Assembly: GCF_024223415.1 (NCBI RefSeq)
Contig: NZ_CP100500.1
Source of the DNA: Escherichia coli
Lineage (GTDB): Bacteria > Pseudomonadota > Gammaproteobacteria > Enterobacterales > Enterobacteriaceae
Strand: one strand, 5' to 3'
DNA: 64,000 nt
Below, piece by piece: positions 53,502-53,840 of this stretch. A program made the position numbers and the translations under genes. How positions within the stretch are numbered: the first letter of the stretch is position 1; every line of letters begins with the position of its first letter. Under the pieces are notes generated by a model. The model was not told the origin of the DNA. It made no database searches and was given only the letters and a program-made list of their open reading frames with translations.

Positions 53502-53840
53502 TCATTCGGCCGATGAACAGTTGCTTAAGACAGGATTATCATTCCCTTCCACCAGATTGGCTTTTTTCCCTTTTGTGTACAGTTTATATGAGTATCTTTT
53601 ATTGATGGCTTCGTAATTGGCTCCGGAGGCCATTTTCATAAGCTGCATAGGTATCATCTCATCCATCTGATTAATCACTGCATATGAGTTCCCAGCAGTG
53701 GTGTTGATATAGACCACCTCCATTGTCTTATTTCCATTACAGACATAAGCTGTTTTTGAGATTTCTTTTGTGGCAGCGGAGGATACCATACTGCTGCTAA
53801 CAAGAATGAGTGCAAGGACGGGAGAAGAGTATTTTTTCAT
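53502..53840 (-). CDS. Periplasmic C-type lysozyme inhibitor (MliC/PliC family)-like protein
   Basis: Signal peptide; YVCNGNK...MASGANYEA...YKLYTKGKKANL...LSNC parallels MliC pattern (C...SASGARY...WSKG...NC). Confidence 0.55.
   Translation of the reverse strand: MKKYSSPVLALILVSSSMVSSAATKEISKTAYVCNGNKTMEVVYINTTAGNSYAVINQMDEMIPMQLMKMASGANYEAINKRYSYKLYTKGKKANLVEGNDNPVLSNCSSAE

Follow-up and report, generated by a model that had tools for sequence, protein, structure and literature searches.

The question raised by this locus is what is encoded by a short open reading frame, here called pliC, lying on the minus strand of an E. coli island, and whether its product works together with the adhesin and the regulator encoded next to it. 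The window, that is the whole stretch of DNA that was analysed, comprises 64,000 nucleotides of contig NZ_CP100500.1 (assembly GCF_024223415.1). An original prediction, made from the letters alone, had proposed a soluble periplasmic lysozyme inhibitor of the MliC/PliC pattern, which could form a host-interaction module with the adhesin and a LuxR-type regulator. This analysis established the sequence of the gene, the family and fold to which its product belongs, the selective constraint acting on it, its distribution and its mosaic context; the positions of its features are collected in Table 1. We conclude that the reading frame very probably encodes a PliC-type periplasmic inhibitor of c-type lysozymes, acting by the three-step mechanism described below.

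Table 1. Features of the pliC locus, in positions of the window.
Feature	Position	Strand	Basis or description
pliC coding sequence	53502..53840	-	ATG-to-TGA open reading frame, 112 codons + TGA stop
Predicted Sec signal peptide, residues 1-22 (MKKYSSPVLALILVSSSMVSSA)	53775..53840	-	hydrophobicity profile, AXA-type site, negative lipobox regular expression
Mature domain, 90 aa, 9.93 kDa, pI 8.56	53505..53774	-	predicted eight-stranded beta-barrel
Cysteine codons	C34 = 53739-53741; C108 = 53517-53519	-	sequence; both align with family cysteines
Lysozyme-binding motif 1, MASGANY (family SxSGAxY), contains S72	53613..53633	-	alignment
Lysozyme-binding motif 2, YKLYTKG (family YxxxTKG), contains K90	53568..53588	-	alignment
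Shine-Dalgarno AAGGAG	53846..53851	-	sequence; ends 5 nt before the ATG of pliC
Candidate -10 hexamer TATAAT (inferred promoter)	53884..53889	-	sequence; 43 nt upstream of the pliC ATG; weak -35
Portable pliC cassette, 520 bp, 38.3% GC	53478..53997	.	gene + 157 bp upstream + 24 bp downstream
IS3-family transposase remnant between pliC and nanE	54144..54237	.	79% blastn match to an annotated pseudogene in plasmid locus L004
YadA-like trimeric autotransporter	51312-52601	+	Pfam YadA_anchor E = 1×10−16
Small sigma-70-region-4-type HTH protein, 151 aa	52662-53117	+	Pfam Sigma70_r4_2 2.2×10−7

The protein matches the Pfam family MliC (PF09864, COG3895) with an E-value of 4×10−12 and a score of 46.4 bits, compared to a gathering score of 22, and 66 of the 67 profile positions are covered. 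It passes the NCBIfam equivalog model PRK13791, "c-type lysozyme inhibitor", with 156.5 bits for a cut-off of 127, and remains below a second model, PRK13792 (NF010364, "lysozyme inhibitor"), with 17 bits for a cut-off of 261. Among solved structures, the best phmmer match is PDB entry 3OE3 (E = 7×10−40), identified as the PliC protein of S. Typhimurium (PMC5507604), with which the mature part shares 64 of its 90 residues (71%). The search for a significant profile match to MliC/PliC, whose failure was to count against the family assignment made originally, was therefore clearly positive.

Both motifs known to contact lysozyme in this family were found. The first one, M70-A-S72-G-A-N-Y76, has a methionine in place of the first serine of the SxSGAxY pattern, exactly as in the validated Salmonella PliC, and the second, Y85-K-L-Y-T-K90-G91, is a full match to YxxxTKG. 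The spaced residues on which the original prediction relied, namely C34, MAS72GANY76, Y85KLYTK90G91 and N107-C108, are all in place. An alignment was made with homologues from E. coli, Klebsiella, Salmonella, Proteus, Morganella and Pasteurellaceae, together with the MliC protein of E. coli. Across these 14 family members no variation is seen at C34, S72, G73, Y76, Y85 and G91, and very little at K90 and C108. C34 and C108 correspond to the family's cysteines of strands 1 and 8, between which a stabilising disulfide is formed. In the family, loop 4 carries SxSGAxY and strand 6 carries YxxxTKG, and the serine and lysine of the two motifs insert into the active site of lysozyme, in what was called a "double key-lock" (PMC6033465, PMC5507604).

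A model obtained with AlphaFold2 from a 14-sequence alignment has eight beta-strands, as in the antiparallel barrel typical of the family, with pLDDT values of 85 to 94 over the domain. When submitted to Foldseek, its top matches were the chains of 3OE3, with target-normalised TM scores of 0.94 to 0.97 and an rmsd of 0.7 to 1.4 Å. Then came Brucella PhiA, the complex of P. aeruginosa MliC with hen lysozyme (3F6Z) and Brucella PliC, and 4MIR and 4MIS were also retrieved.

One property distinguishes the protein from its closest characterised relative. The net charge of the mature form is +1.8 (pI 8.56), compared to −3.2 (pI 4.76) for Salmonella PliC, and most other members of the clade are acidic. 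Compared to the Salmonella protein, the charge is changed by K25, G36, K38, T48, N80, R82, K93, N95 and N100, and this is partly compensated by D60, Q66, N102 and E112. Judging from the up-down topology of the model, T48, K93 and N95 appear to be placed at the same end of the barrel as the lysozyme-binding loop. As several of the charge changes apparently fall at this end, the affinity for very basic lysozymes could differ from that of Salmonella PliC. The basic charge is the sole feature of the protein that is undescribed in the literature searched. A bolder reading, based on the charge and on the strong enrichment of the chromosomal allele in poultry-associated lineages, is that this allele is a charge-reversed PliC whose target preference or potency has shifted to particular avian c-type lysozymes, and which measurably aids the survival of avian pathogenic E. 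coli (APEC) in chickens or eggs. We consider this rather unlikely; if true, it would explain the residual periplasmic inhibitor activity of an APEC ivy mutant (PMC3458809).

The unusual charge could also fit a different partner altogether. A PliC fold might inhibit a bacterial peptidoglycan hydrolase and not a host lysozyme, either as an immunity-type protein directed at a lysozyme-like interbacterial effector or as a regulator of an endogenous muramidase like Brucella PhiA. The PhiA structures (7DPY, 7DSG) are the second-best matches of our protein in both sequence and fold, and PhiA is an example of a PliC-like fold directed against a bacterial muramidase. However, identity to PhiA is only 21 to 25%, compared to 71% with a validated lysozyme inhibitor, both lysozyme-contact motifs are intact, and no effector or muramidase gene adjoins pliC in any of the five contexts examined. 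We therefore hold inhibition of a bacterial hydrolase to be very unlikely, and retain a c-type lysozyme of the host as the probable target.

The validated inhibitor deserves a closer comparison. Salmonella PliC (SEN1802 / STM1249; 3OE3) was purified from a periplasmic extract on a lysozyme column, and a knock-out of its gene abolishes the inhibitory activity; its Sec signal peptide is predicted to span 24 aa, and the mature protein comprises 90 aa, with a mass of 9981 Da and a pI of 4.76 (PMC2267010). The precursors measure 112 aa here and 114 aa in Salmonella, for the same mature length, and both carry a Sec signal peptide devoid of lipobox. The MASGANY and Y-x-L-Y-T-K-G motifs do not differ between them, nor does the cysteine pair, and the fold predicted here superposes on the Salmonella structure at 0.7-1.4 Å. 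Apart from the reversed charge (pI 8.56 here vs 4.76), what differs is the genetic setting. In Salmonella, a pagC-like Ail/Lom gene and a cold-shock-domain gene are found close to pliC, whereas in the E. coli island studied here it occupies a cassette of 520 bp, and DNA similarity between the window and the Salmonella locus is limited to the coding region, with 74% identity over 227 bp. The gene was universal among the Salmonella genomes sequenced by 2008 (PMC2267010), compared to about 3% of the E. coli genomes (see below). No biochemical characterisation of an E. coli PliC protein was found in the literature searched.

Is the gene real, and is it used? RefSeq labels the exact same protein "c-type lysozyme inhibitor" in every genome inspected. 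Comparison with a diverged plasmid allele (dS 0.39) gave dN/dS ratios of 0.11 in the mature part and 0.59 in the signal peptide. For the comparison with Salmonella, dS is saturated and the ratio is not computable for that pair. Given the highly significant profile matches and the dN/dS of 0.11 of the mature part relative to the plasmid allele, pliC is a real gene and no chance open reading frame, and it is under purifying selection.

Signals for expression were also looked for. A strong Shine-Dalgarno sequence precedes the start codon, and AGAAGG is kept in each of the five aligned pliC alleles. Further upstream, the block around the TATAAT hexamer (GATGAATTAT..ATATAA) is conserved between the chromosomal allele and two plasmid alleles. 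The candidate promoter is defined by these two elements, the perfect TATAAT and its conservation across alleles. A scan for consensus promoters and terminators returned nothing convincing for pliC, and missed the TATAAT because its −35 partner is poor. An Rfam scan of positions 52600-54400 found no RNA family. Since the Salmonella gene adjoins a pagC-like gene, the region upstream of pliC was also inspected visually for a repeat resembling a PhoP box, and no convincing direct repeat was seen.

These data bear on the possibility that pliC is a silent or decaying passenger between IS remnants, without useful expression. An IS3 remnant does flank the gene, IS insertions are found nearby (IS1414 in strain TUM9803), truncated copies exist in a few genomes (hits H37, H124 and H125), and the consensus promoter scan called none. 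Against this, the reading frame is intact and 99-100% identical in some 147 genomes, it evolves under the constraint measured above, and it is preceded by a strong Shine-Dalgarno sequence and a conserved upstream block with a perfect TATAAT. A passenger status is thus highly improbable, and a functional, expressed inhibitor is preferred.

Concerning the cellular location, the amino-terminus of the product has the three regions of a signal peptide, with a basic MKK n-region, a hydrophobic PVLALILV core and an SSA/A signal-peptidase-I site. The predicted cleavage junction, MKKYSSPVLALILVSSSMVSSA/ATKEISK, places the mature amino-terminus opposite the first residue of the Salmonella PliC chain that was crystallised. 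The 112-aa protein has only two cysteines, C34 and C108, with none before residue 34, and neither a strict nor a PROSITE-style lipobox pattern matches. Since this predicted signal peptide is devoid of a lipobox cysteine, the assignment to the soluble PliC type, and not to the lipoprotein MliC type, holds, as had been proposed in the original prediction from the same trait. A related observation was made with a rare E. coli allele, P0010 (loci L014/L015), which is 83% identical and has in its signal peptide a stretch, L-A-G-A-C, that fits the permissive PROSITE lipobox, while the downstream ASA/A is kept. This may represent a PliC drifting toward an MliC-like lipid anchor, or a meaningless match. 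That the product encoded here would itself be an MliC-type lipoprotein anchored in the outer membrane, as its Pfam family (the same as that of MliC) and the P0010 allele might suggest, can hardly be entertained, as there is a serine where P0010 has its cysteine, the absence of any cysteine before residue 34 makes a lipobox impossible, and the protein passed the PliC model PRK13791 and scored far below the cut-off of PRK13792.

We propose the following mechanism, in which export, position of the cleavage site, disulfide formation and inhibition of lysozyme are inferred from the Salmonella and Pseudomonas homologues. In a first step, the 112-aa precursor would be exported by the Sec pathway and cut by signal peptidase I after Ala22, with no lipid attached, since the lipobox cysteine is absent. 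The 90-aa protein would then fold in the periplasm as an eight-stranded beta-barrel, which a disulfide between C34 and C108 is expected to staple. Finally, when a c-type lysozyme of the host passes a damaged outer membrane, its active-site cleft would be plugged by the S72 loop (MASGANY) and by K90 of strand 6 (YKLYTKG), and peptidoglycan would be protected. PliC would thereby act as an additional c-type lysozyme inhibitor, beside the core MliC protein and beside Ivy (PMC3458809). The gene itself would form a low-GC, monocistronic cassette that moves horizontally and brings its own ribosome-binding site and a probable promoter.

The core protein MliC (YdhA), as known from E. coli and P. aeruginosa (3F6Z), has in common with the pliC product the Pfam family, the eight-stranded barrel, the cysteine pair, the SGAxY loop and the KG of strand 6. 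However, overall identity between the two is only about 27%. With its lipobox (LLSGC in K-12), MliC is a lipoprotein, and it belongs to the species core, whereas the pliC product is predicted to be soluble, and is accessory.

The limits of the pliC cassette were apparent from comparisons with other genomes. The only segment common to the window and plasmid locus L004 extends from 53478 to 53997, at 86% identity (blastn). Its base composition (GC of 38.3%, and 40.7% for the pliC frame alone) departs from the 49.7% of the window and from the 52.6% of the adjacent nanE-PTS genes. On its upstream side, a frame in the region of the IS3 remnant (54160-54285) reads ..RMDNGSEF.., and beyond the remnant are found nanE, then a PTS EIICB gene and an RpiR regulator. 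On the other side, both the adhesin gene and the regulator gene are read from the plus strand and thus converge with pliC. In 142 genomes, the regulator and pliC genes form one contiguous stretch. Nevertheless, the adhesin-regulator pair exists without pliC in strain VTB97074v (L007), where homology ends at 53464 and unrelated genes follow, as well as in SCU-115 (L006), where homology ends at 53399 and an IS256-family pseudogene follows.

Adhesin, regulator and pliC as one functional module was therefore rejected, on the basis of the synteny breaks at ~53464-53478. The host-interaction module suggested in the original prediction does not survive these comparisons, as the pair occurs without pliC and pliC occurs on plasmids without the pair. 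Nor did its LuxR-type regulator, since the Pfam matches of this protein are to Sigma70_r4_2 and to generic HTH models, with no LuxR/GerE model among them, and no NCBIfam support was found either. Because the pair is found without pliC and plasmid copies share only positions 53478-53997 with the window, we conclude that pliC is a self-contained cassette, which mosaic assembly has placed beside the adhesin module, and that no operon or regulatory link is indicated.

In strain BEN2908, the whole module is contained in an island of ~55 kb, which is bordered by a tRNA-Leu gene with an integrase at one end and by nanM/nanC/fimB at the other. No tRNA gene is present within the window. Two known islands were considered as the identity of the region, and both were rejected. 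The selC-associated AGI-3 island of BEN2908 does not fit the boundaries just given, and the tkt1 island, located between metE and ysgA, differs in gene content.

Several details of the neighbourhood were recorded. In the YadA-like adhesin, the signal peptide is immediately followed by an (AQ)n run, and three tandem copies of a 35-aa repeat are almost identical to one another. The length of its gene across strains takes the values 1161, 1260, 1266, 1359 and 1548 nt, which suggests repeat-mediated length variation. In the gap between regulator and pliC, a 40-codon frame on the plus strand (53202-53324), with no Pfam match and unannotated in RefSeq, would give a peptide of very high hydrophobicity (MIIRTGCLYMKITKAAFIFALSVWSVAVICLLLFVLIVLG), which is perhaps a small membrane peptide, or the frame may have arisen by chance. 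The same gap has a palindrome at 53409-53428 (GTGACCGTC..GACGGTCAC), and a perfect 28-bp palindrome is found at 54289-54316 (GGAATAAGCGATAATTATCGCTTATTCC), just downstream of the nanE stop. These two palindromes are possible terminators or insulators; a T-run is absent at both, and the terminator scan called neither.

We then come to the distribution of the gene. Of 5426 complete E. coli genomes, 169 carry it, 165 of them with a coverage of at least 80% (~3%), whereas core mliC was present in 5425 of the 5426. In these complete genomes, 154 of the places occupied by pliC are chromosomal and 23 are on plasmids, and some strains, such as LS45, have both chromosomal and plasmid copies. Many complete genomes, that of APEC O2-211 among them, have the pliC segment at 100% identity, and BEN2908 has it at 99%. 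Among chromosomal carriers with a host label, 25 out of 46 were of poultry origin, compared to 3 avian isolates out of 50 in the mliC background (Fisher p ~2×10−7), in a comparison made on an evenly spaced sample of 46 and 50 host-labelled rows, and with a p value that ignores clonal relatedness and sequencing-project bias. Homologues of pliC had been noted in two E. coli genomes in 2012, as a possible cause of the residual inhibitor activity in the APEC ivy mutant (PMC3458809).

On E. coli plasmids, diverged alleles (79-89% identity) are found beside IS, integrase, Rep3 and autotransporter genes. A more distant Klebsiella relative, 41% identical and annotated "c-type lysozyme inhibitor", accounts for 644 of the 743 matching PLSDB plasmid records, and the Klebsiella matches listed are K. 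pneumoniae plasmids of ~180-390 kb (e.g. NZ_CP026587.1, hits H190-H208). Lysozyme inhibitors thus appear to be common cargo on Klebsiella plasmids. The plasmid alleles of E. coli (e.g. WP_025263478.1) and the Klebsiella relative resemble the chromosomal gene by their family, their single-gene mobile habit and their IS or integrase flanks. The E. coli plasmid alleles differ by their sequence and by a less basic product (pI of 5.0-6.5 for the alleles computed), and have as neighbours genes for a PerC-family regulator, a Rep3 replication protein and autotransporters. As a check for a phage origin, 50,697 phage records were searched, and no pliC-like sequence was found.

Other features were noted elsewhere in the window. 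At its beginning, a co-directional run of genes on the plus strand (42-8971), starting with a secretin (GspD-like) and a type II secretion ATPase (GspE-like), is consistent with a type II secretion operon, and is followed by a fragment of IS3-family transposase (9327-9803). Further on, three genes matching the Shango defence system are found on the minus strand, with SngA at 21025-23352 (E = 5×10−97), SngB at 19705-21021 (E = 4×10−187) and SngC at 17510-19708 (E = 1×10−273). They are followed by two co-directional minus-strand frames, of 1583 aa (12783-17534) and 743 aa (10555-12786), neither of which has a Pfam or PADLOC match. Over the whole Shango region (10555-23352), overlaps of a few bases suggest that these frames are translationally coupled. 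AbiEi (24603-25262, E = 7×10−46) and AbiEii (23536-24642, E = 3×10−193) adjoin Shango, and a 731-aa AAA_13 ATPase at 25419-27614 corresponds to the PADLOC candidate system PDC-S06 (E = 3×10−242). Shango, AbiEi/AbiEii and the PDC-S06 ATPase together form a defence island.

To conclude, pliC is an ordinary accessory gene, already annotated. Because its family, its mechanism and its presence in some E. coli are already on record, the present finding is a confirmation placed in its context, and no new kind of system. Lysozyme inhibitors help Gram-negative bacteria to resist a major innate defence. For APEC, MliC has been reported to be important for virulence in chickens (PMC3458809). An extra inhibitor that is mobile, predicted to be soluble, and enriched in poultry-associated E. 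coli is therefore a plausible niche-fitness factor, and a possible marker.
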